Shown here in pieces: positions 4,104 through 63,304 of a stretch of DNA of 64,000 nt; the stretch's first letter is position 1; each line of letters starts with the position of its first letter. The notes beneath the pieces were generated by a model. The model was given only the letters and a program-made list of their open reading frames with translations. It was not told the DNA's origin and did no database searches. Origin of the DNA: Acidimicrobiales bacterium (GTDB taxonomy: Bacteria > Actinomycetota > Acidimicrobiia > Acidimicrobiales > Aldehydirespiratoraceae); the NCBI GenBank assembly GCA_965214945.1, contig OZ244029.1, forward strand, positions 125,256 through 189,255, given 5' to 3'. The translations under genes and the position numbers were made by a program.

Positions 4104-4188
4104 GGAGGGTTGCCAGAGCGGCCGAATGGGCACGCTTGGAAAGCGTGTGAGGCGAGAGCCTCCGTGGGTTCAAATCCCACACCCTCCG
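4104..4188 (+). tRNA. tRNA-Ser (anticodon GGA), copy 1
   Basis: Acceptor GGAGGGT pairs with ACCCTCC, the anticodon loop is CACGC-TTGGAAA-GCGTG, there is a long variable arm, and the T-loop is GGTTCAAATCC. CCA is not encoded. Confidence 0.9.
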
Positions 4189-14034: not shown

Positions 14035-14149
14035 GGGTGTGGCGGCCAGGCTGTCTGCGGCACCCGAGCGGTTCTGCTGAGAGCTGCTGCCTTCCGGCCC
14101 TGACCCGGTTCACAGGCGCTCGTCGCACAGGACCCGGCCGCCACACCCC
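14035..14149 (-). ncRNA. ffs: signal recognition particle RNA, copy 2 (identical to copy 1)
   Basis: Same sequence as 3928-4042, shifted by 10107. Confidence 0.8.
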
Positions 14150-14210
14150 GAAGCGGGCGAAACGTGACGGCACGGTACCCTCACCAGCCGGGGTCCGCTG
14201 CGGCGGGCTG

Positions 14211-14295
14211 GGAGGGTTGCCAGAGCGGCCGAATGGGCACGCTTGGAAAGCGTGTGAGGCGAGAGCCTCCGTGGGTTCAAATCCCACACCCTCCG
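14211..14295 (+). tRNA. tRNA-Ser (anticodon GGA), copy 2 (identical)
   Basis: Same sequence as 4104-4188, shifted by 10107. Confidence 0.9.
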
Positions 14296-44972: not shown

Positions 44973-46178
44973 CTAAGAGACGGGCGGTCCTACGTTCACC
45001 GGCGCCGGATGCGTGAGCGGACAGCGGGTGCCGGTGTAGATCGTGGGCATGCACCGGTTGCAGTGGATGCAGACGCCCGCGTCCGCGCTGCCCGAGCGCA
45101 TCCGGTTCACCAGGTCGGGCTCGTGCAGCAGAGCCCTGGCCATTGCCACGAACTCGAAGCCCTCGTTCAGCGCTTCGGCGACCGTGTCGAGCCGGTTGAC
45201 CCCGCCTAGCAGAATCAGCGGTATGTTCAGCGCCTCAAGGAAGCGTCTCGCCTTGCCGCGGAAGTACGCCTCTTCAAAGGGATAGTCAGGCATCAGCTTG
45301 GCCCCTGCGAGCTTGAAGCCGATACGGGCCAGCGGCGGCAGCGTGGCCGCGAACTCCTTACGAGGCGCCTGGCCGCGGAACAGGTACATCGGGTTGCCGA
45401 AGGAGCTGCCACCGGTCAGCTCCAGCGCGTCGAGCGTTCCGTCGGACTGGAGCATCCGCGCCACTTCGAGGCTCTCGTCGTCTTTGAGGCCGCCGGGCAT
45501 GCCGTCGTTCATGTTGAGTTTGGCGATCATCGCGATGTTGTCGCCTACCGCGGCGCGCACCGCGCGGACGACCTGGCGCCCGAAGCGGGCCCGGTTGCGG
45601 AGAGACCCGCCCCATTCGTCTTCGCGCCTGTTCAGCCACGGGCTCAAGAACGCGCTCAGCAGGTAGTTGTGCCCGAGGTGGATCTCAAGCGCGTCGAACC
45701 CGCTGTCCACCACGAGGCCGGCGGCGCGGGCGTAGTCATCGGTGACACGGGCGATGTCGGCAGCGGTGGCGGAGCGAATCATGCGAAACGCGACGGGATT
45801 GAAGCGACGCGACGCCGAGATCGACGGCTTGCCGTTGGAGCGGGCGTTGGCCACCGGGCCGGCGTGGCCGATCTGAGCGCTCACCGCGGCGCCTTCTGCG
45901 CGTACTGTCTCAGTCAGCCGCAGCAGCCCGGGAACGGCCTCAGGCCGAAGCCAGATGCAAGCGGCGTGGGTGCGCCCCTCGGGCGCCACCGCCAGATATG
46001 CAACGGTGGTCATGCCGACGCCGCCGACAGCCACCCTCCTGTGGAACTCGACCAGCTCAGGTGTGACCAGCGCGTCGGGCATCACGCCCTCGAAAGTGGC
46101 GGCCTTGATGATGCGGTTGCGCAGCGTCACCGGCCCGAGCTTTGCCGGCGCGAACGGATCCACGGATCGGCTTGTCAC
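44973..46178 (-). CDS. NADH:flavin oxidoreductase (Old Yellow Enzyme family) with a C-terminal Cys cluster
   Basis: LRNRIIKAATFEG, EIHLGHNYLLSAFLSP, and the C-terminal CIHCNRCMPTIYTGTRC, as in the N-terminal module of 2,4-dienoyl-CoA reductase. Confidence 0.8.
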   Translation of the reverse strand: MTSRSVDPFAPAKLGPVTLRNRIIKAATFEGVMPDALVTPELVEFHRRVAVGGVGMTTVAYLAVAPEGRTHAACIWLRPEAVPGLLRLTETVRAEGAAVSAQIGHAGPVANARSNGKPSISASRRFNPVAFRMIRSATAADIARVTDDYARAAGLVVDSGFDALEIHLGHNYLLSAFLSPWLNRREDEWGGSLRNRARFGRQVVRAVRAAVGDNIAMIAKLNMNDGMPGGLKDDESLEVARMLQSDGTLDALELTGGSSFGNPMYLFRGQAPRKEFAATLPPLARIGFKLAGAKLMPDYPFEEAYFRGKARRFLEALNIPLILLGGVNRLDTVAEALNEGFEFVAMARALLHEPDLVNRMRSGSADAGVCIHCNRCMPTIYTGTRCPLTHPAPVNVGPPVS

Positions 46179-46421: not shown

Positions 46422-46496
46422 TGGCGCCCCCGGCAGGAGTCGAACCTGCGCACACGGTTTAGGAGACCGATGCTCTATCCACTGAGCTACGAGGGC
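46422..46496 (-). tRNA. tRNA-Arg (anticodon CCU)
   Basis: The minus strand reads GCCCTCG TA GCTC AGTGGATA GAGC A TCGGT CTCCTAA ACCGT GTGC GCAGG TTCGACT CCTGC CGGGGGC G CCA. The cloverleaf was checked by hand, and CCA is encoded. Confidence 0.9.
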
Positions 46497-46555: not shown

Positions 46556-47764
46556 CTACCTACCGGCGTGTGGTGACGCCGCCTGCGACGACCGCAGGCT
46601 TGAGACCGGGTGCGTGCCGATGATGCGCAAGCGGCCGAGCCCGACGATGACGAGCATCGCCACGCCCACGATCGGCCAGGTGAGCTTCGCTCCGATGCGG
46701 TCATACAGCAGCGAAGACGGCAACGCCGCCAGGCCCGCTCCTAGCACCTCCGAAGCGCCCATCAGACCCAGGGCCGCGGCTTGGCGCTCCTCAACCACGG
46801 CGCGGCACACCACGACTTGCATCGAGACAAACCCGAAGCCGTCGGCAAACCCCAGAGCTCCCATCACCGCCACAGGCACCGCGAGACCGGGCAACACGCC
46901 GTAGGTGGTGGTGACCAGGGCCACGACTGTCATCGACGCCACGCACACCCGCACCGGCCCGAGGCGGTCGGCGGTTCGCCCCGCGAGCCGGCTCACCAGG
47001 GCAAGTGGCAGGGCGAGCAACGTGAAGGCGAGACCTGTAACGAGCGCGCCGCCACCACGGTCAGCGAACATCACCGGAACCACAGCCTCCCAGGCGCCGA
47101 TCATCACGAAGTAGCCGCCGACGAACATCAACGCGCCTTGGAGCCTTCGCTGGCCCAGCAGATCCCATGAGACCATGCCGCGGCGGCGCTCGTCGAGGCG
47201 ACCCCGGTCGGGCGGCAGCCTCAGCGCGAACGGCAAGAACGCCGCCATGGCCGCCGCGAACACGGCGAACGGCAGGCGCACGCCGCCGAAGTGGGCCAGC
47301 ACGGCCGCGACCGCAGGGCCGAATATGAAGCCGATGGTCTCGCCTACCACCATTCGGCCCATGTTCTCGCCGACGTTGTCGGGGTCGAAGACCGAAGCGG
47401 CCCGGCGCACAGCCGGCATGGTGAGCCCCACGGCGAATCCCAGCACGGCTCTGCTCACCGCCCAGGCGGCGGTCCCGTCAGCGAACACCATCACCACGAG
47501 CGAGGCGGAGCTGAGCGCGATGCCCGCGGCGGCCATCTGGCGCCCGTAGCCGCGGTCGGCAAAGCGGGCCATCGTCACCTGCGCCGCGAACGCGGCGAGG
47601 AATCCCGACGCCACCATCACGCCGATTCCGGTGTTGCCAAGGCGGAGCTCGTCCCGCAGATCGCCCAGCAGCGCGATGATCGCCACCAGCGAACCGGCCG
47701 TCACGCCCATCACGATCTGGAACGGCAACAGATCGTCACGCCCCAGCCGGCGAAGCAAGATCAT
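46556..47764 (-). CDS. MFS transporter
   Basis: 402 aa with about 12 TM and an MFS loop motif FADRGYGRQ. Confidence 0.8.
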   Translation of the reverse strand: MILLRRLGRDDLLPFQIVMGVTAGSLVAIIALLGDLRDELRLGNTGIGVMVASGFLAAFAAQVTMARFADRGYGRQMAAAGIALSSASLVVMVFADGTAAWAVSRAVLGFAVGLTMPAVRRAASVFDPDNVGENMGRMVVGETIGFIFGPAVAAVLAHFGGVRLPFAVFAAAMAAFLPFALRLPPDRGRLDERRRGMVSWDLLGQRRLQGALMFVGGYFVMIGAWEAVVPVMFADRGGGALVTGLAFTLLALPLALVSRLAGRTADRLGPVRVCVASMTVVALVTTTYGVLPGLAVPVAVMGALGFADGFGFVSMQVVVCRAVVEERQAAALGLMGASEVLGAGLAALPSSLLYDRIGAKLTWPIVGVAMLVIVGLGRLRIIGTHPVSSLRSSQAASPHAGR

Positions 47765-49098: not shown

Positions 49099-50697
49099 GT
49101 GCTGTTGGCTGTCACTCCAAGTACCGAAGACCTGCGCAGAGTCTTCGCAGAGCAGAACATATGGCGTCGGCGCGGGATAGTGCCTTCTTCGCTGGCGCCC
49201 CCGGTGGAGAGGTCGATGGCGCGGCTGCTGTGGCAGCGTCTGGTGCACGACAAGCCTCGACGGTTCCAGATGATCCTCGGACCGCGCCGCGTGGGCAAGA
49301 CGACGGTGCTTTACCAGACCGTCCGGCATCTGCTGGCCGAAGGCATCGAGCCGAAAAGGATCTGGTGGCTACGCGTAGATCACCCCTACCTGATCAGTGT
49401 CGAACTCGGCCGTCTCGCCCGCTTTGTCATTGACGTGACAGGCGCAGACGACGCAACCCCCGCGTTCTTGATGGTGGACGAGATCGCTTACGCCTCCGAC
49501 TGGGACCTGTGGCTAAAGACCTTCCACGACGAGCGTTGGCCGATACGTATCGCGGCCACATCAAGCGCCACAGCCGCTCTTCGGCAGCGCCGCACCGAGA
49601 GCGGAGTCGGTCGCTGGGAGGAGCAGCACCTGTTGCCCTGCTCGCTCGCGGAGGCCCTTGATTTGATCGGCTGGGACGACCCGGCGACCCCTATATCAGA
49701 TTTTTCGGTGGCCGACACCTTCAGCGACACGATCCAGTCGCTACCCGCAGACCATGACGCAGATCTAGGATTCGACATGTTCCGACGACTTTTTCTGCTC
49801 GTCGGCGGCTTCCCCGAACTCCTCGTCCGCCCGACGGGTGATCCCGTAATCGACCTCATCAACGCGGTGATCAAGTCACAGCGCGTGCTGCGCGACGACG
49901 CCGTGGATCGGGCGATCTACAAGGACATACCCCAAAGCTTCAAAGTCAACGACCCCATGATGCTGGAGAAGCTTCTGTACACACTTGCGGGCCAGATGAC
50001 GGGCCTGCTTTCCCCCACGAACATTGCTCAGAGGCTGGGAATGTCGCAACCCACCGTCGACCGGTATCTGTTGCACCTGCAACGGGTATTCCTCGTGTTC
50101 ACTCTCACCAACTATTCCGGCGGGGAGTCCGCCCGCCAGCGCCGGGGCCGCAAGCTCTATTTTACGGACAGCGCAGTGCGAAATGCCGCGCTGCACAGGG
50201 GCATAGCTCCTTTGGACGATCCTGTAGAGATGGGCATGCTTCTGGAGAACCTGGTGGCGTCTTCGGTGAACACGCTGGCCGCGCAAGCAGGCGTGCGTCT
50301 GCACCACTGGCGAAGGGGCAACACTCAGGAAGTGGATCTCGTCTATGACGAACCCGGTCAGCCGCTGGCGTTCGAGATCGCTTCATCGGCCGGGCATTCC
50401 CGCAAGGGTCTGATGGCCCTGGTCAACGCCCACCCGGAGTTCTGGGGCCACTGCTACCTGGTGGCTCCACAGGCACCGGTGATACATGCTGACACCACCG
50501 AGACCGGCATTGGCATGCTGCCGCTTGACATCTTTCTGCTCGCCGTCAGCGCCCAGTCGCACCGAGCTATGGCCACCCGGTTGGGCGTTCCGCTTGGTAG
50601 CGCCGCCAATCATCGGGCTAATGTGACTACTCGGCGCAGCCTGCTGGCCGCCAGCTCTTCCACCACCAGCGTCCGCCAACCAGGAGAACCCCCATGA
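49099..50697 (+). CDS. AAA-family ATPase with a DUF4143-type C-terminal domain
   Basis: Walker A GPRRVGKTT, Walker B FLMVDEI, and a C-terminal QEVDLVYDE (nuclease-fold-like DUF4143 signature). The gene and its 5' flank are visibly AT-richer than their neighbours. Confidence 0.7.
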   Translation: MLLAVTPSTEDLRRVFAEQNIWRRRGIVPSSLAPPVERSMARLLWQRLVHDKPRRFQMILGPRRVGKTTVLYQTVRHLLAEGIEPKRIWWLRVDHPYLISVELGRLARFVIDVTGADDATPAFLMVDEIAYASDWDLWLKTFHDERWPIRIAATSSATAALRQRRTESGVGRWEEQHLLPCSLAEALDLIGWDDPATPISDFSVADTFSDTIQSLPADHDADLGFDMFRRLFLLVGGFPELLVRPTGDPVIDLINAVIKSQRVLRDDAVDRAIYKDIPQSFKVNDPMMLEKLLYTLAGQMTGLLSPTNIAQRLGMSQPTVDRYLLHLQRVFLVFTLTNYSGGESARQRRGRKLYFTDSAVRNAALHRGIAPLDDPVEMGMLLENLVASSVNTLAAQAGVRLHHWRRGNTQEVDLVYDEPGQPLAFEIASSAGHSRKGLMALVNAHPEFWGHCYLVAPQAPVIHADTTETGIGMLPLDIFLLAVSAQSHRAMATRLGVPLGSAANHRANVTTRRSLLAASSSTTSVRQPGEPP

Positions 50698-52229: not shown

Positions 52230-53573
52230 TCAGGAAGAGACGGTGAGGTATGACTCCAGGGAGTCGTCGAGGGCTTCCTCCCACGGAGTGTGATGAACTG
52301 GCGCCAGAGTGCCAGTCAGCGGTGAGGTGTGGCCGTGGTCGCGGTAGCCAATGATCGAGTACTTCTTGTGCTTCTTCCAGTCTTTGAACATCTTGTTGAC
52401 CAGCGGCGTGTTGAAGTCGGGATAGTCGGTCTGGTCGACGAGATCCTGTGTGTAGTCGCCCTGGAAGTCGATGGCCTCATAATCATCCGCAACCTCGGCC
52501 TCAGCGGCCTCAAGATCGGCGATCCAGCGGGCCTGTTCGTCGGCGTCGGGCAGCTTGATGCGCCCGAGTATCACGTCGCGGGCGTACCACGCCTGGGCGT
52601 CGAACATGTTGAACGTGTACCACTGGTCTTGCATCCCCAGGTACAGCACTCGGTTGTTGGGCTGGAACACCACCCCCCGGTACAGCATGGCGGTGGCCAG
52701 GCAGTTGGAGGTCACGAGCCGCAGCTCGTCGTCCATGAACGGGAAGTGGTGTTTGTAGCCGGTGCAGGAGATGATCGCGTCGACCTCGGCGGACGTGCCG
52801 TCGGCGAAGTGCACGGTGCGGCCGTCGACCTTGGTGAGGATCGGCTTCTCGGTGATGCCCTCGGGCCAGTCGAAGCCCATTGGGCCGCTGCGCGACGTGC
52901 AGATCACGGAGCGTGCGCCGTACTTCCAGCACTGCGACGCGATGTCCTCAGCGGAGTAGCTGGAGCCGATCACGAGCACGTCTGAGCCCGTGAACTGCAC
53001 AGCGTCGCGGAAGTCATGAGCGTGTATCAGCGTGCCGCCGAAGGTCTCATAACCGGGGTAGTGCGGCATGTTCGGAGTGGAGAAATGGCCGGAGGCCACC
53101 ACCACCCAGTCGAACGTCTCGCTGACGGTGGTGTCTGCGCCGTGATCGTGCGCGGCGACTGTGAAGGTCTCCGTCTCCGGCGAGTAGCTCACCCGGCGTA
53201 CCGCGTGGTTGAAGCGGATGAAGTCACGGATGCCTGAACGCTCGGCCCGGCCTGCGATGTAGTCGTAGAGCACCTCCCGCGGTGGGAACGAGGCGATCGG
53301 CTTGCCGAAGTGCTCCTCGAAACCGTAATCGGCGAATTCCAGGCACTCTTTGGGTCCGTTCGACCAGAGATAGCGGTACATGCTGCCGTGGCAGACCTCG
53401 CCGTTGCCGTCGAGGCCGGTGCGCCATGTGTAGTTCCACAGCCCGCCCCAGTTGCTTTGCTTCTCGAAGCAAACGAGCTCCACGCCATCTGCGGCGCCCG
53501 TGGTGTCGCTGGCAAAAGCGTGAAGCGCCGACAAGCCGCAAGGCCCGGCGCCGATGATCGCTACCCGTGTCAT
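52230..53573 (-). CDS. tmm: flavin-containing monooxygenase, trimethylamine monooxygenase-like
   Basis: GAGPCG (FAD), FMO motif [11 protein letters not shown] (FxGxxxHxxxF/Y), and GSSYSAED (NADPH). The length of 447 aa is typical of bacterial Tmm. Confidence 0.7.
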
Positions 53574-53674
53574 TGTGCATCTCCCCAGTTATCGGGCTAA
53601 AGCACCGCGACCTTAGCATTCGCACACCTGACGGTCCGGCCTCGAGTTCAGCGCATCGGGGCTGCGCGCTGGTG

Positions 53675-54769
53675 CTACACGAGCACTTCGTCGAGTGCGG
53701 CTAGAAAGAGCGCCACGTTGCGCGGCCGGGCCGTGTGGCCCATGCAGCCGATGCGCCACCAGCGACCGGCGAAGTCGCCGAGGCCGCCGCCCACCTCTAT
53801 CCCGTAGCGCGAGAGCAGCGTCTGTCGCACATCGGCCTCACCCATGCCGGACGGCAGACGCGACTCCGGCACCCACACGGAGGTGAGCTGAGGCAGACGG
53901 ACATCCGGCTGAGCGACCAGCTCGAAGCCCCGCTCCTGGAGCCCGTCCTGGAGCCGGACGCCGCATTCACGGTGTCGGGCGTGGGCTGCGTCGAGCCCCT
54001 CGTCGAGCACCGCGCCGAGCCCAGCGTGAAGGGCGTAAATCATCGAGATCGGAGCCGTGTGATGGTACGCCCGCGCGCTGCCGCCGGTGACATAGTCGGC
54101 GATCATCTTCAAGTCGAAATACCAGGACTGCGAGCGGTGGCCCATGCGCTCCACTGCTCGGGCCGAAGCGCTGAGCGGTGCCAGACCCGGGGGCACGCCG
54201 AGGCATTTCTGAGTGCCGCTGTAGGCGATGTCCACCCCCCATTCATCGAGCCGCACGTCGATGCCCGCCAGCGAAGTGACGCAATCGGCGAGCAGCAGCG
54301 CACCCCCCTTAGCGGCGCCTAGCAGCTCCAGGTCGTTGCGCACGCCGGTGGAGGTCTCGGCATGGACGACGGCAATCACCGCAGGGTTGGGGTGCGCTTC
54401 GAGAAGCCTCTCCGGGTCGAGCGGCGTTCCCCACTCGGCGGCGACAGGAACCACCTCGGCACTGCATCGGACTGCTACGTCGCACATGCGAGCACCGAAG
54501 ACGCCGTTCACGCCGACTACCACGACGTCACCTGGCGCCAGCACGTTCACGAGCGCCGCCTCCATCCCGGCGGAGCCGGTTCCCGAGACGGGGAACGTGA
54601 GGGCGTTCTTGGTGCGGAACACAGAGCGCAGCCGTTCACAGGTCTCGTCGAGCAGTGCTATGAACTCGGCGTCGAGGTGACCGAGCAGCGGCCGGGTGAA
54701 GGCCTCGATCACCTCTGGATAGGGATTGCTGGGGCCGGGGCCCATCAGGATCCGGTCGCTAAGGGCCAT
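53675..54769 (-). CDS. class V aminotransferase (serine-glyoxylate / alanine-glyoxylate type)
   Basis: LMGPGPSNPYPEV at the N-terminus and PLP Lys in YSGTQKCLG. 364 aa. Confidence 0.8.
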   Translation of the reverse strand: MALSDRILMGPGPSNPYPEVIEAFTRPLLGHLDAEFIALLDETCERLRSVFRTKNALTFPVSGTGSAGMEAALVNVLAPGDVVVVGVNGVFGARMCDVAVRCSAEVVPVAAEWGTPLDPERLLEAHPNPAVIAVVHAETSTGVRNDLELLGAAKGGALLLADCVTSLAGIDVRLDEWGVDIAYSGTQKCLGVPPGLAPLSASARAVERMGHRSQSWYFDLKMIADYVTGGSARAYHHTAPISMIYALHAGLGAVLDEGLDAAHARHRECGVRLQDGLQERGFELVAQPDVRLPQLTSVWVPESRLPSGMGEADVRQTLLSRYGIEVGGGLGDFAGRWWRIGCMGHTARPRNVALFLAALDEVLV

Positions 54770-54962
54770 TCGCCACCTTTCTGGCCGATCTTTTTATGAG
54801 CATCGCTTGTCTATTCGCGGCGTTCTCGGAAGTTCCATTGGGTGAAACACGCATCCCACCGGGCGGCAGTCAAACTTCCCCTTGTAGGCGCCATCGCAAG
54901 AGAATCCCGGTGACATGAGGGTGGGGACAAGAGGCAGGGCTCACAACTATAGTTCGCTCTTC

Positions 54963-55916
54963 GTGAGTCACCATCTGGTAGTCCCAGCGCGGCGCCGGCT
55001 ACACCGCAGCCAGCTGGCCGTGCCCGGCTCTCGTCCCGCTCTATTTGAGAAGGCGGCCTCGAGCCGCGCCGACTACGTCTTTTTGGATCTCGAGGACGCG
55101 GTGGCGCCTAACGACAAGGAAGCGGCCCGCCGCAACGTGATCGAGGCGCTGGGCGATATCGACTGGCGCGGTGCCGGCAAGACGATCTCAGTGAGGATTA
55201 ACGGGCTTGACACTCATTACATGTACCGGGACGTGATTGAAGTGGTGGAGCGGGCCGGAGCGCATCTCGACACGATCCTGATCCCTAAGGCGGGCGTGCC
55301 CGGCGATGTGTACATGGTGGACGCCCTCATCACTCAGATTGAGCAGGGCATGGGGCTCACACACCGTATCGGCGTGGAGGCCCTCGTGGAGACCGCCTTG
55401 GGAATGGCCAACGTCGAGGCGGTGGCCGCGTCGAGCCAGCGTCTGGAGGCTCTGCATTTTGGCGTAGCCGACTACGCCGCGTCGTGTCGGGCTCGGACAA
55501 TCGTCATCGGCGGGCTGAACCCGAATTATCCGGGCGATCAGTGGCATTCGGCGCTTTCGCGGATGCTGGTGGCCTGCCGTGCCAACGGGCTGCGCGCCAT
55601 CGACGGCCCCTACGGGGACTTCAGCGACCCTGACGGGTTCACAGCCGGGGCGCAGCGGGCCGCGGCTCTCGGGTATGAGGGCAAGTGGGCCATCCACCCG
55701 TCGCAGATCGACTTGGCCAACGAGGTGTTCACGCCGCCCGCGGCAGAGGTCGACCAGGCCCGCCGGGTGCTCGAAGCGCTGGAGGAAGCGACCGCGGCGG
55801 GACGAGGCGCGGCACAACTCGACGGGCGGATGATCGACGCTGCATCGGCGCGTATGGCGCAGAACGTGGTCGAGACAGCCGAAGCCATCGCCGCTGCCGA
55901 CCTGAGCCGCGCCTGA
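54963..55916 (+). CDS. mcl: L-malyl-CoA/beta-methylmalyl-CoA lyase (HpcH/HpaI-CitE family)
   Basis: Matches the Mcl sequences I remember closely: LHRSQLAVPGS, FLDLEDAVAP, INGLDTHYMYRDV, FGVADYAAS, GKWAIHPSQIDLANEVFTP. GTG 54963 gives an N-terminus of homologue-like length. An alternative ATG start is at 54915. Confidence 0.85.
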   Translation: MSHHLVVPARRRLHRSQLAVPGSRPALFEKAASSRADYVFLDLEDAVAPNDKEAARRNVIEALGDIDWRGAGKTISVRINGLDTHYMYRDVIEVVERAGAHLDTILIPKAGVPGDVYMVDALITQIEQGMGLTHRIGVEALVETALGMANVEAVAASSQRLEALHFGVADYAASCRARTIVIGGLNPNYPGDQWHSALSRMLVACRANGLRAIDGPYGDFSDPDGFTAGAQRAAALGYEGKWAIHPSQIDLANEVFTPPAAEVDQARRVLEALEEATAAGRGAAQLDGRMIDAASARMAQNVVETAEAIAAADLSRA

Positions 55917-56051
55917 CACCTCAAGACCCGGCACACGAAACAACCGGCGCGCGCCACGTGGACAAATGAGCTTGGTGCTCGACCCTTCGAAGTGCAGAGA
56001 CCGGCACCGTCGTCCGGAAGGTGATGTGCCGCTGGCCAGCTGCAGGTGGCG

Positions 56052-58505
56052 TCAGATGAGGCCGCGGACGCGCTTCTTCTCGGGGTCGTAAAACGGGAAG
56101 CGCACCACCGTGGCCGGGATGCGCTTCTGGTGGCCGTCGAGCTTGCCCACCTCCACGGCCGTGCCGATCCCGGCGTGCTCCACTGCCATCCGGCATAGCG
56201 CGATGTTGGAGCGCAGCACCGGCGAGATCGTGCCGCTGGTGACTACTCCCACCTGAAGGCGCCCGTCGTACACGCCGTCGCCGTGAGCGGCAGGCTCGTT
56301 TCCGGCCAGGCTCAAGCCCACCAGCCGTCGCTGCGGGTTGTCACGCCTGCGGGTCAGGGCATCACGCCCTATGTAATCGTCTGATTTGGTCTTGAGCGCC
56401 ACAGTGAACCCGATCCCGGCCTCATAAGGGTCGGTCTGGTCGCAGAACTCGTGGCCAGCGAATACCAGTCCCGCCTCAATGCGCAGCATGTCCAACGCGG
56501 TCAGGCCCATCGGCGCAATGCTGTGACCGGCCCCCGCCTCAAAGACGGCGTCCCACACCTCAGGGGCGTCTTTGGGGTGGCAGAACACCTCATAGCCGAG
56601 TTCACCGGTGTAGCCGGTGCGCGACACCACAAGTGCGGTCCCGGAAGGACCGCCGAGCCGGGCGATCGCGAAGCGGAACCAGCCCATCTCGGCCATAGTC
56701 GGCTGATCCGGGCGTGTCCAGACGATCTGCTCGAGAACGTTGCGGCTGCTGGGTCCTTGCACCTGCAGGTTGTGAAGATGGTCGGTTGAGCATCGCACCC
56801 AGGCTCGCAGCCCCAAGGCCTGCGCCTGCTCGCGCAGCCAGAGGCCACTGTGGTCGCTGCCACCTATCCAGCGGAAGTTCTGCGGCCCCAGACGGAACAC
56901 GGTGCCGTCGTCAATCATCCCGCCGGTCGAGTGGCACATCGCCGTGTACACCACCTGACCGTCGGACAGCCGTCGGACGTTGCGGGTGACGCAGGTCTGC
57001 AGAAGCAGTTCGGCGTCGGGGCCGGTCACCTCGTACTTGCGCAGCGGTGAAAGGTCGATCACAGCGACCGCCTGCCGGCAGGCCCAATACTCGTCTATGG
57101 CGCCGTGGCCGCTGTAGGAGTTGGCCAGCCAGTAGCCGTTGTACTCGCCGAACCTGCGGGTCAGGCGGGAGGTTCGGGGGTGGAACCCGGTCTCCTTGGT
57201 GAGTTCTGCTGCTGAGTCTGCCGTCATGCGGAACGCCGTCGCTTTCTTGAACCGCCTGGCTGAGGGATAGACACGCACGGCGATGTCGGTGGGATTCCAG
57301 CCGTTCGCGGCGTCGATGTCGTCGGGGCAGGAAGTGGACACGCACACCAGGTCTTCGAGCGCCCGCAGAAGCACGTAGTCGCCGGGGCGCGACCACGGCT
57401 CGTCGAGAAAGATCTGGTTGGCGTCGTCCAACTGGGTGTTGTAGAAGAAGTTGATCGCCTCCCAACCCCGGCGTGCGGCGACGCCGTAGCGGGCCAGCTC
57501 GCCATTGATGTTGTCGGTGCAGTTGGCGTGCCCTGGGTAGCCCATCTCCTCGTAATAACGGGCTGAGCAGGCCGTGTTGAAGGTGTCGTGACGGCCCACA
57601 GTGTCTTGGACGACCTCGGCCAGCGGTTTCATCTCAGCGTTATAGAACTTCGAGTACAGGCCCGGCTCGGGATAGCTGGCCCCCATCAGCGAGCGAGTGA
57701 TGGTGGCGTCGAGACACAGATCTGCTCCGGCGTCGAGGTCGGAGCGGGCGAAGCACTGGAAGTCGGAGCACTCCCGACCCTCTACGTCGATGATCTGGAA
57801 CCACTCGCCTTTGGCCACCTCATACGCGGCAGCGGTGCATCGCTCGACGATGAACTCCTGGTTGGGGTCGGCCAAAGGTGGCGGCAGCAGGGCCGGATCG
57901 CCGGGCACGGGCGGCGTTCGACGGTGGACGTAAGCGATCAGGTCGGTCGGGGGGTCTTGAGCGTGCGCGCTCATCAGTGCTCCGGGCGCGGTGACCGCGC
58001 AGGTGACGTTGGCGTGGGCGACCATTCGGGCCGCGGTACCAGGCGGCGCGTCGGCGGCGAAGAGCCGCAGCGTCTTGGCGGAGCGCAGCGCCTGTCGGTC
58101 GATTCCGATGAGTTTGAGCCCGATCCGCACGCGGCGAGCGTCCACGAGTGGCGCCGACAAGATCCCCACGGCGGTCGACTCAGCTGGTCTGCCAGAATGC
58201 CGACCGCGGCCGATGCGACCGCGGTCGCTATTGATGCTGCGCTGGCGCTGGTCGCTGTCGTCAGTGTTGCCACAGGCGTCACCGACCGCTCCCAACAGGG
58301 CCGGATCCGATGTTCCGTCGGTCGCAAAGGCGACGATCTCACACTGTTGGCGTCCCTGGGGATCAACCACCTCGAGTTCATCACCAGCCTGGAGCGCCAG
58401 CACGACGGCACCACCGCCCGACACCCGGTAGCGCTCCACGCCGGGTCCGAGCATTGCCAGCCCCGGCAGCAGAAGGCGCGGCTGCTCAGAAGTGGGTGCC
58501 TTCAT
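56052..58505 (-). CDS. tdm: DUF1989 + GcvT (tetrahydrofolate-binding aminomethyltransferase) fusion, trimethylamine-N-oxide demethylase-like
   Basis: 817 aa. The N-terminal ~400 aa are DUF1989-like (GEWFQIIDVEGRECSDFQCF). The C-terminal ~400 aa are GcvT-like (AVIDLSPLRKYEVTGPDA...SRTGYTGELGYE...GDGVYDG). This is the architecture described for Tdm. Confidence 0.7.
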   Translation of the reverse strand: MKAPTSEQPRLLLPGLAMLGPGVERYRVSGGGAVVLALQAGDELEVVDPQGRQQCEIVAFATDGTSDPALLGAVGDACGNTDDSDQRQRSINSDRGRIGRGRHSGRPAESTAVGILSAPLVDARRVRIGLKLIGIDRQALRSAKTLRLFAADAPPGTAARMVAHANVTCAVTAPGALMSAHAQDPPTDLIAYVHRRTPPVPGDPALLPPPLADPNQEFIVERCTAAAYEVAKGEWFQIIDVEGRECSDFQCFARSDLDAGADLCLDATITRSLMGASYPEPGLYSKFYNAEMKPLAEVVQDTVGRHDTFNTACSARYYEEMGYPGHANCTDNINGELARYGVAARRGWEAINFFYNTQLDDANQIFLDEPWSRPGDYVLLRALEDLVCVSTSCPDDIDAANGWNPTDIAVRVYPSARRFKKATAFRMTADSAAELTKETGFHPRTSRLTRRFGEYNGYWLANSYSGHGAIDEYWACRQAVAVIDLSPLRKYEVTGPDAELLLQTCVTRNVRRLSDGQVVYTAMCHSTGGMIDDGTVFRLGPQNFRWIGGSDHSGLWLREQAQALGLRAWVRCSTDHLHNLQVQGPSSRNVLEQIVWTRPDQPTMAEMGWFRFAIARLGGPSGTALVVSRTGYTGELGYEVFCHPKDAPEVWDAVFEAGAGHSIAPMGLTALDMLRIEAGLVFAGHEFCDQTDPYEAGIGFTVALKTKSDDYIGRDALTRRRDNPQRRLVGLSLAGNEPAAHGDGVYDGRLQVGVVTSGTISPVLRSNIALCRMAVEHAGIGTAVEVGKLDGHQKRIPATVVRFPFYDPEKKRVRGLI

Positions 58506-58511
58506 AGCCCG

Positions 58512-58904
58512 TCAGCTCTTTTTGCCTTCGTCGACGCCTTCATCGACGCGCGGCGCGCGCACACCGGCGAACATATCCCAAATCAGCAGGATGGCGGCCG
58601 ACAGGGCCGCCAGAGCGCAGATCCAAAGGCCCCAGCCGATGTCGGCCGTGTCGCTGCCGGACAGATCGACGACGGCCCGGCCGCTCACTGCGACAACGAA
58701 GCCCGCGCCGATCCAGGCCGGGCGCCAGCGAATCTGCACGAGTGCAACCGTTGCTAGCGCGACGATGAAAGCTATCCGACCGGCGTTGGTTTCGGTGCCC
58801 GCCACTGAGGGGGAGCCGGCACCACCGGATTCCCAAGGAAAGAACACCCCTATCGCCGCGAGCAGCGCGCCCGCTTGTGCGGTGCGCCGCCTGGTGAACG
58901 TCAC
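58512..58904 (-). CDS. hypothetical membrane protein (4 TM)
   Basis: 130 aa, hydrophobic, ending 6 nt before the tdm start. Confidence 0.55.
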   Translation of the reverse strand: MTFTRRRTAQAGALLAAIGVFFPWESGGAGSPSVAGTETNAGRIAFIVALATVALVQIRWRPAWIGAGFVVAVSGRAVVDLSGSDTADIGWGLWICALAALSAAILLIWDMFAGVRAPRVDEGVDEGKKS

Positions 58905-59002
58905 GGCCGCAGGGCTTGTGAGTTATTAAAAGACAACGGCCAGCGCCGCGCTACCACGTGGGTGCGCGGCACCGGCCGCATCAATCGGGAATGAGCCAAG
59001 CG

Positions 59003-59134
59003 TCAGGCGCCGCCGACGGCTTGGATGCAGATGATGGTGAAGACGATGCAGACCAGACAGAAGATTACTACTGCCCGTTCCACGGACTTGTCGTGGCCCT
59101 GCTTGCCTTCAAACTCGATTTGCTTTCCTGCCAT
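59003..59134 (-). CDS. small membrane protein, 43 aa (below the ORF-track cutoff)
   Basis: Own translation: MAGKQIEFEGKQGHDKSVERAVVIFCLVCIVFTIICIQAVGGA. A strong SD (GGAGG) lies 5 nt upstream of the ATG, and there is a single TM helix. Confidence 0.55.
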   Translation of the reverse strand: MAGKQIEFEGKQGHDKSVERAVVIFCLVCIVFTIICIQAVGGA

Positions 59135-59150
59135 TTCAGCCTCCTAGATC

Positions 59151-59456
59151 TTATGAGTTGTACTTGGCGCTGAGGCGCTCGGCTGCCTCATTGAGGGTGG
59201 CGTCCTCGCGGGTGGTGACCAGCAGCGCTGACGCGATCGACATGGCGATGGCGAAGATCGACAGCCACACCGAGCCGAGGTTTCCGCCTGGCCCCCAGGT
59301 GTAATACCCGGTTGTGCCGTCTGCGGCCGCCAGCGCCGCCTCCCAACTGTCGTAAGGGAAGCTGCCGCTGAAGATGCCGCCGATCCCGGCGATCGTTAGC
59401 AGTATGGCGATCAGTCCGATAACCGCACCCATCAATGTGTTGAAGCCCTTTTTCAT
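59151..59456 (-). CDS. hypothetical membrane protein (2 TM)
   Basis: 101 aa starting MKKGFNTLMGAVIGLIAILLTIAGIGG, with a second TM helix VWLSIFAIAMSIASALLV. Confidence 0.6.
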   Translation of the reverse strand: MKKGFNTLMGAVIGLIAILLTIAGIGGIFSGSFPYDSWEAALAAADGTTGYYTWGPGGNLGSVWLSIFAIAMSIASALLVTTREDATLNEAAERLSAKYNS

Positions 59457-59462
59457 CTCGAT

Positions 59463-59603
59463 TCAGTTCCTTTCTCGTGTTTGACTACCCCAGCCTTGGG
59501 CTTTCCGTCGCGCCCGCTTGCGCTGCCCCCAGTATCCAGCGGCCGCAACCACCGAGTACATGAGAACCACAGCTAGCACAAACTGAAGCCATGAGCCGGA
59601 CAT
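59463..59603 (-). CDS. small membrane protein, 46 aa (below the ORF-track cutoff)
   Basis: Own translation: MSGSWLQFVLAVVLMYSVVAAAGYWGQRKRARRKAQGWGSQTRERN. It has one TM helix and a basic tail. The ATG lies 9 nt after the amt stop and the ORF ends 6 nt before the next gene. No clear SD is present. Confidence 0.4.
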   Translation of the reverse strand: MSGSWLQFVLAVVLMYSVVAAAGYWGQRKRARRKAQGWGSQTRERN

Positions 59604-59612
59604 CTGTCTGCG

Positions 59613-61001
59613 TTATCGGTGTAGGTCTGCGTAGGCGGACCGGAGCGTCGCCTCGCCGGATTCCTCAGTGCCGTCGGCGTGGACGATGGGCTCATCCGCG
59701 CGTCCAAACTCTGGGTAGAAGTCCGTCTGGAACTCGGCCATGTCGAGGCCCTCGATTTCCACCTCAGGCGGCACGCGCAGCAGGTTGAGCTTCTTGAGTA
59801 TCCACGAGGCGATGTAGCCCGTGAAGAACGCCAGCGGTACCAGCGTTGCGAGGCCCACAAGCTGACCGAGGAACGTCGTCTCCACGCTGTTCACGCCTGT
59901 GGGGAAGCCGACGGCGAAGATGCCGACCGCCATCACGCCCCAGAAGCCCATGACGCCGTGAACCGCCACCGCACCGACCGCGTCGTCGATGCGGGCCCTG
60001 CGCTCGATCCAGTTGCCGCAGTGGTAGGCGAGGCCTGCTGAGAAGAATGCAAGCAGCAGCACCAGCGACGGATTGTAGATATCGGCGCCAGCAGACACCG
60101 CCACCACGCCAGCGAGGCCTCCGGACAAGGTCCAGAACGGGTCGCCCTTGGCGAAGATGTAACCGCCCGCGAAGCCGCCCGCGAAGCCCATCGTGATAGT
60201 GAACGTGATGGCCGACAGAGTCGCCGGGCTGAAATAGATATTCGCCCAGCCGGGCACGGTGTCGGTGGTGATCGCGAGACAGGCCGCGTAGAACGCGTAG
60301 AAGGCAGTGAAGATGATCATCAGGCCCATCAGCGTGAGGTGCAGGTTGTGGGGCTTGAAAGCCCGTGCGCCTCCGTTCTTGTCGTATTTCCCGATTCTCG
60401 GCCCCAGGTTGAACAGAACACCCAACGCGAAGATGCCGGAGATGCCGTGCACCACGCCCGAAGCGGCGAAGTCGTGGTAACCGAAATGGGTTGTCAGCCA
60501 GCCGCCGTAGCTCCATCCCCAGGCCGCGGCCACGACCCAGACCAGACCGCCCATCAGGGCCGTCAGCCAGAGATAGGCCGAGATGCGGATGCGCTCTAGC
60601 ACCGAGCCCGACATGATCGACCCGGTCGTCCAGGAGAACAGGACGAACGCGGCCCAGAACACGCCGCTGATGTTGTCTCCTAGGTTCGGTCCCATCGAGC
60701 CGTCCCAAGGCACGCCGTAGCCGTCACCGCAGAAATAGGCGCCTTCACCGGCTTTGCCCGCTCCGTCGGATGAGACGGTGAACTTGAGTCCCTCTTCCAT
60801 GCAGAAGTAGACGTACCAGCCGAGGTAGTAGAACGTCGGCGTGACGACAGCGATCGTCATGATGTTCTTCATGGCCGTCGACATGATGTTCTTGCGGCGG
60901 CTAACGCCAGCTTCATAGGTCATAAAGCCCACATGCAGCAGCCACATGATCGCGACGGTGAAGAAGTAGTAAGCCTCGGTGAACACAGTGTCCACTGTCA
61001 T
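59613..61001 (-). CDS. amt: ammonium (Amt/MEP family) transporter
   Basis: 462 aa with about 11 TM, and the motifs DFAASGVVHGISG and AVHGVMGFWG. An SD (GGAGG) lies upstream. No glnK follows. Confidence 0.85.
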   Translation of the reverse strand: MTVDTVFTEAYYFFTVAIMWLLHVGFMTYEAGVSRRKNIMSTAMKNIMTIAVVTPTFYYLGWYVYFCMEEGLKFTVSSDGAGKAGEGAYFCGDGYGVPWDGSMGPNLGDNISGVFWAAFVLFSWTTGSIMSGSVLERIRISAYLWLTALMGGLVWVVAAAWGWSYGGWLTTHFGYHDFAASGVVHGISGIFALGVLFNLGPRIGKYDKNGGARAFKPHNLHLTLMGLMIIFTAFYAFYAACLAITTDTVPGWANIYFSPATLSAITFTITMGFAGGFAGGYIFAKGDPFWTLSGGLAGVVAVSAGADIYNPSLVLLLAFFSAGLAYHCGNWIERRARIDDAVGAVAVHGVMGFWGVMAVGIFAVGFPTGVNSVETTFLGQLVGLATLVPLAFFTGYIASWILKKLNLLRVPPEVEIEGLDMAEFQTDFYPEFGRADEPIVHADGTEESGEATLRSAYADLHR

Positions 61002-61129
61002 CGACTCACCTCCAATGCTTCTTGTCCGATTGTACTTAATCCGGCCCCTGTGGGCCGGACTTCGTTACAATAGCACACTGCCCGCGGCTACGCCAAGCAG
61101 AGCCTTGGAGGGCCTTGGCTCGGCCCGGC

Positions 61130-61513
61130 TTAGGGGACTTCGACCCTGACGTCGGTGACTTCGCCTGTCTGGGCGTTGATCGTCACGGCGGTGTGACGCA
61201 AGAAGTCGTCGCGGCCGCCGTCGGGGTCGCGGATGGTGAACACCACAATCCACGCGGTGGAAGTCATGCCCTGGCGCAGCAGTTTGGCGTCGGAGCGCTC
61301 GGGCACGAAATCGATCTCGGCTAGCGCTGTGGCAATGGCCTCGTCCTTGCCCACATCGGGTTGCCAGCAGCCGCGCAGCGGGCCCCAGATGGTGAGCAAC
61401 AGCACCACCCCGACCACGATGAGCAGCTTGGTGCGGCCAGGCATCGCCTTGAGGCGCTCTGTGAGGCCCCTTGGGCCGCCGGACGCCTCAGGCCGTGTGT
61501 CGGGGGCTGGCAC
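61130..61513 (-). CDS. hypothetical membrane-anchored protein (PepSY-like ectodomain?)
   Basis: 127 aa with TM helix LLIVVGVVLLLTIW and a small beta-rich domain ending INAQTGEVTDVRVEV. Confidence 0.45.
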   Translation of the reverse strand: MPAPDTRPEASGGPRGLTERLKAMPGRTKLLIVVGVVLLLTIWGPLRGCWQPDVGKDEAIATALAEIDFVPERSDAKLLRQGMTSTAWIVVFTIRDPDGGRDDFLRHTAVTINAQTGEVTDVRVEVP

Positions 61514-61522
61514 CTGGGCGGC

Positions 61523-61738
61523 CTAGGCGTCAGCCTTGCGGGGCGAGCGCACCAAGAAGCGCAGGATGATGTAGCCGGCTACATGCGAAAGGGTGAACAC
61601 GAAGAGCATCCACCACAGAGTGGCCTTGATGCTGTAGCGGCGTTCGCGGCACTCCCAGAACGTGAGCCCCACAGCGGCGAGCAGAAGCAACCACAGCAGG
61701 AGACTGTCTTGACGGCTGAAGAGGTATAGCAGGCCCAT
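61523..61738 (-). CDS. small membrane protein (2 TM)
   Basis: Start chosen at MGLLYLFSRQDSLLLWLLLLAAVGL. The ORF track extends it to 61798. Confidence 0.45.
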   Translation of the reverse strand: MGLLYLFSRQDSLLLWLLLLAAVGLTFWECRERRYSIKATLWWMLFVFTLSHVAGYIILRFLVRSPRKADA

Positions 61739-61799
61739 GGTCGTTGGTCCGTCGGTCGTCGTTATGAGCGAGTGTTGATGGGTGCGGCGGCCCCCCAAA

Positions 61800-61825
61800 C
61801 GCTACTCGCTCGCGCTACTCGCTCG
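61800..61825. repeat. 13-nt tandem duplication cgctactcgctcg x2; the second copy contains the regulator's stop codon
   Basis: Copies are at 61800-61812 and 61813-61825. The stop is cta at 61815-61817. Confidence 0.9.
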
Positions 61826-62582
61826 CAGGGTAGACCTTGATCGATATGAACCGCACCGGCAGATCGATCAGCTCCACGGGGCCATGGGCCACTTCACCGT
61901 GGATCTGCATGGTGTCACCGGCGTTGAGCCGGTAGTGTTTGCCGCCGTACCCGTAGTCGACAGACCCCTCGAGCATGTGGAGAAACTCCACACCGGGATG
62001 CTGGTATAGCGGGAACACGTCGCCGGGCTCGGTGATGGTGGCGATCATCGGTTCGATCACCCGGCTGGGACCGCGCAGCGTGCCCAGATCCTGGTAGAGC
62101 CGGCCGGGGCCGCCGCCCTGGTGGTGGATCTCGTGGCCTTCGCCGGCGCGCACGATCACCAGGTCGTGCTCCTCGTCGAGACCTCTGAACAGCGCCGTCA
62201 CCGGCACCTGCGCTGTGGCGGCCAGCCGCACCAGCGTGGACAGACTGGGCGCGCTCTGGCCGTGCTCGATCTTGGAGAGCATCCCCAGCGAGAGACCGGA
62301 ACTCTCCGCGAAGGCCGACATCGTCAGGCCCAACCCCTGCCGCAGGTCGCGCACCCTGGCCCCCACCACGCGGCACACTTCGGCAGTGTCGAGCGACGAG
62401 GTGAGATGCAGCGCATCAGGATCGCTGGCAGCGGGGCCTCGTCCGGCAGCGCCCCCGCGGGCGGCCTCGGAGCCCCTCTCGGGCGTGAGGCTCGCCGCCG
62501 ACGCTGGATTCACCATGTTGATCCTGCCAAGTCCATGCCGTGATTGTGCGCGGGCGGCTGATCGCGGGCTACCCGTCCACAC
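61815..62582 (-). CDS. XRE-family HTH transcriptional regulator with a C-terminal cupin domain
   Basis: LRQGLGLTMSAFAESSGLSLGMLSKIEHG (HTH_3) plus a cupin domain (YQHPGVEFLHMLEG...GDTMQIHGEVAHG). The start is uncertain. Confidence 0.8.
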   Translation of the reverse strand: MWTGSPRSAARAQSRHGLGRINMVNPASAASLTPERGSEAARGGAAGRGPAASDPDALHLTSSLDTAEVCRVVGARVRDLRQGLGLTMSAFAESSGLSLGMLSKIEHGQSAPSLSTLVRLAATAQVPVTALFRGLDEEHDLVIVRAGEGHEIHHQGGGPGRLYQDLGTLRGPSRVIEPMIATITEPGDVFPLYQHPGVEFLHMLEGSVDYGYGGKHYRLNAGDTMQIHGEVAHGPVELIDLPVRFISIKVYPASE

Positions 62583-62650
62583 GACCTGGCGCCTGCTGAA
62601 GCGACCGGGCCTGCCCTCACCGTGCGATCTAGCATCGCGGCATCCTGATC

Positions 62651-63304
62651 TTGTTCCGGCACGCTCGCACTTCTAACAATGCCCAGGCCCGGTTGCAGGG
62701 CCAGTTTGACTCGCCGCTCGACAAAGTGGGGCTCCGGCAGGCTGCCGTTGCGGGCAGGGCCCTGCTGGACCGCTGGCCGGTCGACCGAGTGGTGTCGTCC
62801 TCGCTTCAGCGGACGCGCCAGACCGCTGCCGCAGCCAGACTAGGCGAACTGCCCACCGCCATTGACGACCGCTGGATGGAGATCGACTTCGGCGCCTACG
62901 ACGACCACAGCATCGGTGAGGTGATGGCGGAGCTCGGCGCGGCATGGGCAGCCGACTCGGAGTACGTCCCTCCCGGTGGCGAGTCGATGGGTGATCTGCA
63001 TCGTCGTGTAGGTGCCGCCCTGGACGAGCTCGCCGAACCCGCCCGCACCGAGAACGTGGTGGTGGTGACCCACGCCACCCCGATCAAGTCCGCGGTGACG
63101 TGGCTGCTGGGCGGGACCGCGGAGATGATCATGCGCCTGCGGGTCAACCTGGCATCGGTGACGGCTTTTGGCGACACCCCTTACGGCTGGGTGCTGACCG
63201 AGTTCAACTGGACCCCGGCTCGGCGCGTCGGCAGTCCGCGGGGCAATCCGGTCACCGCCTTGGAGCAAGCCCGTACTGCCGCTCCTCTATCAGGCCGGCT
63301 ATGA
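62651..63304 (+). CDS. histidine phosphatase family protein (phosphoglycerate mutase/CobC-like)
   Basis: FRHARTSNN (RHG-type motif) and VVVTHATPIK. The only in-frame starts after the upstream TAG are TTG 62651 or rarer codons. Confidence 0.7.
   Translation: MFRHARTSNNAQARLQGQFDSPLDKVGLRQAAVAGRALLDRWPVDRVVSSSLQRTRQTAAAARLGELPTAIDDRWMEIDFGAYDDHSIGEVMAELGAAWAADSEYVPPGGESMGDLHRRVGAALDELAEPARTENVVVVTHATPIKSAVTWLLGGTAEMIMRLRVNLASVTAFGDTPYGWVLTEFNWTPARRVGSPRGNPVTALEQARTAAPLSGRL

Follow-up and report, generated by a model that had tools for sequence, protein, structure and literature searches.

Can an actinobacterium break down trimethylamine (TMA) and trimethylamine N-oxide (TMAO), abundant nitrogen-rich osmolytes of marine animals whose degradation has, to our knowledge, been worked out almost only in Proteobacteria? 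The question is raised by a gene cluster in a 64,000-nucleotide stretch of DNA (GenBank assembly GCA_965214945.1, contig OZ244029.1, positions 125,256 to 189,255; hereafter the window, numbered from its first letter). The window is part of a single-contig genome (G000, 3.15 Mb, completeness 95.7%) of an uncultured Acidimicrobiales bacterium (class Acidimicrobiia, Actinomycetota) that is probably associated with a sponge. A sequence-only reading of this DNA had proposed a methylated-amine module comprising a Tmm-like flavin-containing monooxygenase (FMO), a Tdm-like DUF1989-GcvT fusion, serine-cycle enzymes and an Amt transporter, and all of its open reading frames (ORFs) were found in place. 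Our analysis indicates that the cluster is likely to be a catabolic module for TMA/TMAO. Its core enzymes, Tmm and Tdm, are of known types that can be named by NCBI curated models, and it is the host lineage that is under-studied.

The predicted Tmm scored 746 bits against the curated equivalog model for trimethylamine monooxygenase (NF058570, cut-off 675), and in a genome-wide search with this model it was the single copy over the cut-off (745.6 bits). Against solved structures it scored 664 bits to 8b2d, 640 bits to 2xve and 630 bits to RnTmm (5ipy), with a further 559 bits to 6kbw, deposited as trimethylamine monooxygenase. The FAD-binding GxGxxG motif is present as GAGPCG at residue 8, the FMO motif FxGxxxHxxx[FY] at residue 178 and the NADPH-binding GxSxxA motif as GSSYSA at residue 203, in agreement with the FMO motif and paired dinucleotide motifs described earlier. 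The placement check did not group the protein with Baeyer-Villiger or indole-oxidising FMOs. These scores and motifs mark Tmm as orthologous to the NADPH/FAD enzyme responsible for oxidising TMA to TMAO.

The DUF1989-GcvT fusion was likewise borne out as Tdm. It contains the Pfam domains DUF1989, GCV_T and GCV_T_C, scored 1174.5 bits against the curated equivalog model for TMAO demethylase (NF053776, cut-off 1100) and is the only copy in the genome over that cut-off, with other GcvT-domain proteins reaching at most 179 bits on the same model; it did not group with sarcosine or dimethylglycine enzymes. Structures of the Paracoccus enzyme are available (PDB 9q59, 9q5a, 9q5l; eLife 2026, PMC13619132), and Tdm aligned to the cryo-EM-solved 9q59 with 869 bits over residues 126-814. 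We mapped the residues named in that study through the HMMER alignment and then checked them by script. The zinc-binding Cys triad is kept (Paracoccus C285/C301/C365 corresponding to C313/C329/C393), the substrate residues D220 and D367 are identical (D248 and D395), as are the four residues of the tetrahydrofolate (THF) site (R480/F582/F672/K782, here R508/F610/F700/K810), and F327 is replaced by Y355, a Tyr also found in 41/41 Acidimicrobiia and 12/22 proteobacterial sequences. All ten zinc, substrate and folate residues are thus kept, one of them as a conservative F-to-Y exchange. By these residues and scores Tdm is orthologous to the Zn-dependent enzyme cleaving TMAO into dimethylamine (DMA) and formaldehyde, the latter being passed, as in the orthologue, to THF in the GcvT domain. 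Taken together, the curated cut-offs, the retained residues and scores of 630-869 bits to solved or characterised enzymes identify Tmm and Tdm as genuine orthologues; both are 55-59% identical to the copies on a Rhizobium plasmid.

To place the pair among other bacteria, we scanned one genome per prokaryotic species and compared the 80 tdm loci returned in a tblastn table. About 40 were from Acidimicrobiia (67-78% identity) and the rest from Proteobacteria (49-62%). In sampled genomes Tdm passed the cut-off in 4/301 Acidimicrobiia and 10/401 Actinomycetota, this genome being included in both counts. Acidimicrobiia Tdm and Acidimicrobiia Tmm each formed one clade with SH-aLRT support of 100 in quick maximum-likelihood trees, and the sister of the Tdm clade (support 99) consisted of sponge-associated Gammaproteobacteria that carry a related Amt as well; since these trees are unrooted, they do not give the direction of transfer. 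The nearest named relatives by Tdm are metagenome-assembled Acidimicrobiales, namely Ca. Aldehydirespirator, Ca. Aldehydirespiratoraceae and Ca. Poriferisodalis, and the closest relatives of the host are sponge symbionts. Literature searches on tmm or tdm, covering Acidimicrobiia and Poriferisodalis, did not turn up any description of this cluster; in one sponge study FMO transcripts were actinobacterial, but tdm was assigned to Alphaproteobacteria.

Around this pair the gene order is conserved. The order XRE-cupin, s91, s127, Amt, s46, s101, s43, s130, Tdm, Tmm is common to the approximately 40 Acidimicrobiia genomes, and its core was seen in every Acidimicrobiia locus with enough flank, with the XRE-cupin gene missing from the flank in ten. 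Amt and XRE-cupin are conserved members of the cluster. Every gene named by the sequence-only reading was in place, but it had overlooked the six small conserved ORFs that lie between regulator and tdm. These mostly consist of predicted membrane helices, match no Pfam family over the cut-off and were not seen by tblastn in any proteobacterial tdm locus; among 5.8 billion proteins, relatives of s101 amount to no more than 39 clusters, unnamed or hypothetical throughout, with Acidimicrobiaceae as the sole source name. The XRE-cupin protein is 66-87% identical at the cluster head in most Acidimicrobiia loci, and a homologue of 39-42% identity occurs in three proteobacterial tdm loci (two Burkholderiales, one sponge gammaproteobacterial). 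It is the likely regulator of the cluster, a role that in Proteobacteria belongs to the AraC-type TmaR.

Table 1. Features of the cluster and of the N-methylglutamate gene sets (window positions, unless marked as genome positions).
Feature	Position	Strand	Basis
tmm, trimethylamine monooxygenase, 447 aa	52230..53573	-	NF058570, PDB relatives, motifs, tree
Class V aminotransferase, AGXT type, 364 aa (glyoxylate to glycine)	53675..54769	-	PF00266, 1vjo
mcl, malyl-CoA/beta-methylmalyl-CoA lyase, 333-aa ORF	54915..55916	+	PF03328 (HpcH/HpaI lyase), 5ugr
tdm, TMAO demethylase, 817 aa	56052..58505	-	NF053776, 9q59, mapped residues
s130, small membrane protein, function unknown	58512..58904	-	no Pfam; 36-60% identical, same position in Acidimicrobiia loci
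s43, 43 aa, single helix	59003..59134	-	no Pfam; 57-93% identical, same position in Acidimicrobiia loci
s101, two-helix membrane protein	59151..59456	-	syntenic in related loci
s46, 46 aa, single helix	59463..59603	-	48-72% identical, same position in related loci
Divergent Amt-family channel, 462 aa, tdm-linked subclass	59613..61001	-	PF00909
Extended -10-like element GTGCTAnnGT (61067-61076), then 8-bp hairpin (61040-61059)	61040..61076	-	ahead of Amt ribosome-binding site
s127, membrane-anchored, faintly PepSY-like	61130..61513	-	PepSY E=0.025, below cut-off; 38-69% identical in related loci
s91, two-helix membrane protein	61523..61798	-	no Pfam over cut-off; 42-65% identical in related loci
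XRE-cupin transcription regulator, 255-aa ORF	61815..62582	-	HTH_3 + Cupin_2
Set A: divergent gmaS-like gene, mgsABC, 443-aa DAO, 403-aa DAO	genome ~2.835-2.845 Mb (gmaS-mgs ~2840432-2845180)		
Set B (L012 supercluster, G000 C1 2944000-2962000): gmaS, mgsABC, two DAO-GcvT fusions (841, 819 aa), MttB-family protein	genome ~2.947-2.960 Mb		

How might the substrate cross the membrane? The Amt homologue had been read as an importer of ammonium or methylammonium. It passed PF00909 but is probably not an ordinary ammonium channel: its 207 bits to PF00909 are the lowest in a 61-genome sample of the class (other Amts 277-443), it scored 225 bits against TIGR00836 (cut-off 343) and only 60 bits against E. 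coli AmtB structures. In the AmtB alignment the pore residues F107 and F215 (the Phe gate), W148, D160, and the twin histidines H168 and H318 are kept, while S219 is replaced by Cys (C241 here), W212 by Phe and T273 by Ser. We take AmtB S219 to be part of the external ammonium-recruitment site. Cys at this position was found in 47/47 tdm-linked Amts (38 Acidimicrobiia and nine proteobacterial), which are related sequences and not independent counts, with the proteobacterial copies being 45-46% (sponge Gammaproteobacteria) or 24-26% (Burkholderiales) identical. Ser219 was found in 30/30 Amts from other Acidimicrobiia genomes, in E. coli and in the second, canonical Amt of this genome (1842840-1844033). 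Phe at W212 is present in 38/38 Acidimicrobiia tdm-linked Amts and in 4/9 proteobacterial copies. Because Cys219 is common to three Amt groups this far apart, we argue that it marks a functional subclass, which would most simply be tuned to methylated ammonium.

It is possible, though we hold it doubtful, that the tdm-linked Amt is instead an ordinary ammonium channel or sensor, present only for the handling of ammonium released downstream, with the Ser219Cys exchange being neutral. Such a role would fit the retention of F107, F215, W148, D160, H168 and H318, residues known to be needed for conduction, the P-II gene that follows the tdm-linked Amt of Malikia as in canonical amtB-glnK pairs, and the best solved relatives (8qj3, 8qpf, 6eu6), which are named no more specifically than 'ammonium transporter'. 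However, the genome already has its canonical Ser219 Amt, Tmm and Tdm yield no ammonium, and a neutral exchange sits poorly with Cys in 47/47 tdm-linked sequences from three groups 25-46% identical versus 0/30 controls.

The region upstream of the Amt gene carries a conserved element of its own. Each of the aligned loci (18/18) carries the sequence GTGCTAnnGT unchanged. The 7-8-bp hairpin that comes after it is 95% paired, with G-U being the commonest pair at one position; three of its pairs show compensatory changes, and the covariation exceeded that of 500/500 shuffles and of all slid controls. We propose that the element is an internal promoter and that the hairpin forms an RNA stem close to the 5' end of an Amt-to-tdm transcript, in which Amt, four small membrane proteins and tdm would be co-transcribed. 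A search of the whole window with Rfam at gathering thresholds returned no RNA family within 52-63 kb, the promoter and terminator scan of 51.6-62.9 kb gave sites no more numerous than in shuffles, and the search for a shared operator motif across the cluster's intergenic regions yielded nothing beyond one chance 9-mer.

Tdm would leave the cell with DMA, and the genes for DMA monooxygenase (dmmDABC) had been reported as missing from the window. This held, and not for the window alone. We took the annotated Rhizobium plasmid cluster as the pathway reference and searched the genome by tblastn: its DmmA, DmmC, PurU and APC permease had no match anywhere in the genome, DmmB matched a generic oxidoreductase only, and the best match to DmmD was the GcvT domain of Tdm itself. 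The DmmC family PF11927 had no match here, nor in three further Acidimicrobiia genomes that carry Tdm, with Rhizobium and Zoogloea controls scoring about 230 bits. A TMA or DMA dehydrogenase (TMADH/DMADH) was also considered and rejected, the only Oxidored_FMN gene in the genome encoding a 401-aa OYE-like protein (window 44973-46178). Given that no known enzyme converting DMA to monomethylamine (MMA) was found, DMA would either be released from the cell or be processed by an enzyme not yet described.

The N-methylglutamate genes, which use MMA, were also described as lying outside the window, leaving the route beyond DMA open. They are indeed outside it, but are present twice elsewhere in the genome (Table 1), so that the open part of the route narrows to the step from DMA to MMA. 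The gmaS gene of set B scored 555 bits against TIGR03105 (cut-off 470) and lies with GATase, GXGXG and FMN glutamate-synthase genes (genome 2946664-2953638). Instead of a classical four-subunit mgdABCD, DAO or DAO-GcvT fusion genes stand beside the mgs genes. A sox-like pair at ~2.923-2.927 Mb consists of one soxB-like gene and one gene of the soxA family, which is long and includes a GcvT domain. Two further observations concern set B: its MttB-family methyltransferase is a non-Pyl protein of 523 aa that scored 351 bits against the TMA methyltransferase model, below the model's cut-off, and its gmaS and mgsA are separated by an inserted Schlafen/AlbA_2-HATPase_c_4 gene.

DAO-family flavoenzymes recur beside tdm in other genomes. 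In Poriferisodalis a 403-aa DAO gene directly follows tmm, with mgs genes a few kb further; its orthologue here lies at genome 2834810-2835997, 2.65 Mb from the cluster. Four Burkholderiales tdm loci that lack Dmm (Malikia, two Hydrogenophaga and one Burkholderiales metagenome-assembled genome, MAG) have a DAO gene upstream of Amt and tdm. The tdm locus of Malikia granosa P1, a cultured betaproteobacterium (L089, 1-14313), reads XRE-cupin, HutD-like, ETF, DAO, LysR, ETF-QO, Amt (Cys219), P-II, Tdm, Tmm, and its flank contains no DmmABC; ETF/ETF-QO genes beside DAO were seen in this one annotated Burkholderiales tdm locus. The best match to the DAO of these loci in the present genome is the 403-aa protein (30% identity, 133 bits), whose best solved relative is a 1y56 chain deposited as sarcosine oxidase (104 bits). 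Its neighbours here are DHDPS-like and ornithine-cyclodeaminase-like genes; proline/hydroxyproline catabolism fits equally well, and we did not assign it as a DMA oxidase. Malikia granosa offers a tractable organism in which to study DAO/ETF as a candidate DMA dehydrogenase.

A more far-reaching proposal is that the tmm-tdm modules without Dmm hold two undescribed parts, a Cys219 Amt channel for methylated amines and a DAO-family enzyme converting DMA to MMA. The Acidimicrobiia channel would in that case be further marked by Phe at W212 and by the company of small membrane proteins specific to the lineage, four to six in number, and the candidates for the enzyme would be the 403-aa DAO and the DAO of the Burkholderiales tdm loci. 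We regard this combination as rather improbable.

What, then, do mcl and the aminotransferase add? Among solved structures the mcl product reached 426 bits (E 7.5e-127) with 5ugr, a malyl-CoA/beta-methylmalyl-CoA lyase, and 318 bits with Mcl 4l9y, compared with at most 128 bits against CitE/RipC/CLYBL structures (3qll 128, 5vxc 112, 1sgj 94), so that its description as a very clear malyl-CoA lyase was justified. The only matching Mcl model in NCBIfam was the haloarchaeal NF041626 (133 bits, cut-off 500), no model named for the bacterial enzyme being among the matches. The aminotransferase had been called Sga-type. It is a class V glyoxylate aminotransferase, but of the AGXT type: its best match among solved structures is 1vjo, an alanine-glyoxylate aminotransferase (313 bits), and animal AGXT gave ~226 bits, versus 147 bits for the plant serine-glyoxylate aminotransferase (SGAT) 6pk1. 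Its pyridoxal-phosphate lysine lies in SGTQKC at residue 188, no NCBIfam equivalog was passed and tblastn found no second AGXT-family gene in the genome; the enzyme could also use serine.

Comparison with relatives showed that these two genes are the remainder of a larger unit. In 12-13 related loci, including that of the closest relative (Tdm 80% identity), a cassette consisting of mcl-mtkA-mtkB on the opposite strand and the aminotransferase gene sits between tdm and tmm, with Mcl orthologues 79-87% identical occupying the same place. The window keeps mcl and the aminotransferase, with a gap of only 135 bp between mcl and tdm, and no MtkAB orthologue was found in this genome, the sole sucCD pair being 39-53% identical to the relatives' MtkAB and presumably encoding the housekeeping succinyl-CoA synthetase. 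Other partial cassettes were noted in Acidimicrobiales MAGs (mcl only in L018, mtkB only in L017), and several lineages seem to be losing the mcl-mtkAB-agxt cassette independently of one another. A public-run contig of 10,430 nt covers 53729-62800, including the mcl/tdm junction, with zero differences, and this run is possibly the source sample itself. Short contigs of a second study (X5) have loose ends at the mcl/tdm junction (55748, 55800 and 56064), where a related strain may carry other DNA, perhaps mtkAB. The proposed serine-cycle link is thus supported for the lineage, in which Mcl is genuine and the cassette is complete in relatives, but unsupported for this genome, which has no mtkAB orthologue and an aminotransferase that is not of the Sga type. 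Elsewhere in the genome we found a GlxK-type glycerate kinase, Ppc (phosphoenolpyruvate carboxylase), isocitrate lyase (ICL; a long, 783-aa frame, G000 C1 2684776-2686512) and Fhs (formate-THF ligase); a GckA-type glycerate 2-kinase was not found.

These observations make it quite possible, if still somewhat doubtful, that mcl and agxt serve a glyoxylate or glycine assimilation bypass and not a serine cycle. The inputs would be glycine released when betaine or sarcosine is broken down, or the glyoxylate formed by ICL; both would pass through glyoxylate, which with acetyl-CoA would give malyl-CoA and then malate, replacing malate synthase. Malate synthase (PF01274) was not found in this 95.7%-complete genome, which does have ICL, lacks an mtkAB orthologue and encodes at least six glycine-yielding DAO-GcvT or sox-type enzymes; moreover, the condensing direction of Mcl operates in Rhodobacter and haloarchaea. 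Set against this are the 12-13 relatives in which mtkAB follows mcl and the cassette lies exactly between tdm and tmm, a position that fits the supply of a C1 acceptor. Nor could a malyl-CoA thioesterase be assigned: a second CitE-like gene (G000 1025979-1026800) was considered, and its only generic CitE/RipC similarity was uninformative.

Taken together, the genes suggest the following scheme for TMA/TMAO catabolism. The substrate would probably enter via the divergent Amt paralogue. Tmm would convert TMA to TMAO, and Tdm would convert TMAO to DMA and formaldehyde, which would then be loaded onto THF. The resulting methylene-THF may either be oxidised, a formate-THF ligase being present, or be joined to glycine, an acceptor that the AGXT-type aminotransferase could supply from glyoxylate in a genome with isocitrate lyase and no malate synthase found. 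For Mcl, from the cassette truncated here, the most likely reaction is the condensation of glyoxylate and acetyl-CoA, unless the enzyme is a relic. MMA could be used through the two gmaS-mgsABC sets.

Several points weigh against this scheme. The host is uncultured, and the module is a prediction from its genes. The N-terminal region of Tdm has an insert of ~45 residues that does not align to the Paracoccus enzyme. No complete serine cycle is encoded, as mtkAB lacks an orthologue. We know of no Amt channel that passes di- or trimethylammonium. With no known DMA enzyme found in the genome, no nitrogen would be released from TMA/TMAO, and the gain would be one C1 unit per molecule unless there is an unknown DMA enzyme. 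Finally, bacterial Tmm also oxidises dimethyl sulfide (DMS) and other amines, as cited in marine surveys, so that TMA need not be its sole substrate.

The last two points also bear on an alternative that we consider unlikely, in which the cluster mainly detoxifies or turns over host-derived TMAO/TMA, or oxidises DMS to DMSO via Tmm, with DMA being excreted and neither growth on methylated amines nor nitrogen gained. The failure to find DmmA, DmmC or a TMADH/DMADH-type enzyme in the genome would leave the nitrogen locked in DMA, and SAR11 is without Dmm too. Against this alternative stand the tight linkage of tdm with a regulator and an Amt-type channel of its own, and the presence of two gmaS-mgsABC sets for MMA. 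In Poriferisodalis, mgs genes and two DAO flavoenzymes share a supercluster with tdm-tmm, which suggests that the route is complete and that its DMA enzyme is a new one. We favour a catabolic role for the cluster.

The wider surroundings of the cluster add some observations in their own right. The G+C content is slightly lower over 48-62 kb of the window (0.63-0.66) than elsewhere (~0.68). Just before this stretch the OYE-like Oxidored_FMN gene and an MFS transporter gene (46556-47764) flank a tRNA gene (46425-46496), and an AAA_14/DUF4143 ATPase is encoded at 49099-50697. An exact 300-nt direct repeat occurs at 3854-4153 and 13961-14260, 10,107 nt apart; each copy contains a full bacterial signal recognition particle (SRP) RNA gene (68.6 bits each), and the repeat is a genuine duplication unless it arose in the assembly. 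Only small shares were recorded in runs labelled 'sponge metagenome', a run label that we did not use as habitat evidence.

Orthologous tmm-tdm genes in a clade of about 40 Acidimicrobiia, including the sponge-symbiont groups Ca. Poriferisodalis and Ca. Aldehydirespirator, provide a concrete candidate role for Acidimicrobiia symbionts in recycling host methylated amines. Since this lineage, like SAR11, is without a known DMA enzyme, its conserved unknown neighbours offer leads to the 'DMA bottleneck' and to the passage of methylated amines across the membrane; they comprise the Amt subclass marked by Ser219Cys, six small membrane proteins and the DAO flavoenzymes in linkage with them.

Collectively, our results place the cluster beside several known systems. 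Tdm shares with the Paracoccus enzyme (PMC13619132) the Zn Cys triad, D220, D367 and the four THF-site residues, and differs from it in the Tyr for F327, the poorly conserved N-terminal domain and the insert there. The Amt channel resembles Escherichia coli AmtB in fold family, twin histidines, Phe gate, W148 and D160; unlike AmtB it carries S219C, W212F and T273S, has no adjoining glnK and is flanked by six small membrane proteins. The Methylobacterium extorquens serine cycle (mcl, mtkAB, sga) is matched by a true Mcl and, in relatives, by an mcl-mtkA-mtkB operon beside a glyoxylate aminotransferase, whereas this genome has an AGXT-type aminotransferase, no mtkAB and a kinase of the GlxK and not the GckA type. 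With the pathway of Methylocella silvestris, Ruegeria pomeroyi and Paracoccus (tmm, tdm, dmmDABC, gmaS, mgsABC, mgdABCD, with TmaR), the host has in common orthologous Tmm/Tdm, gmaS, mgsABC and a C1 unit directed to THF. Here, however, the host belongs to class Acidimicrobiia of the Actinomycetota, DmmA and DmmC were not found, an XRE-cupin protein replaces TmaR, the cluster holds no TmoXWV or TmoP TMAO transporter, and DAO or DAO-GcvT fusions stand beside the mgs genes in place of mgdABCD. There is a likeness in gene content to the methylated-amine island of SAR11 (Pelagibacter ubique HTCC1062; PMC5520151), which comprises tmm, tdm, an amtB-like gene and N-methylglutamate genes and no dmmDABC. 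Unlike that island, the present cluster belongs to another phylum and has six small membrane proteins seen only in Acidimicrobiia, an XRE-cupin gene seen only in Acidimicrobiia and a few other groups, and, in part of the lineage, a serine-cycle cassette. In sum, this is a known pathway in an under-studied host lineage, with some variant accessories.

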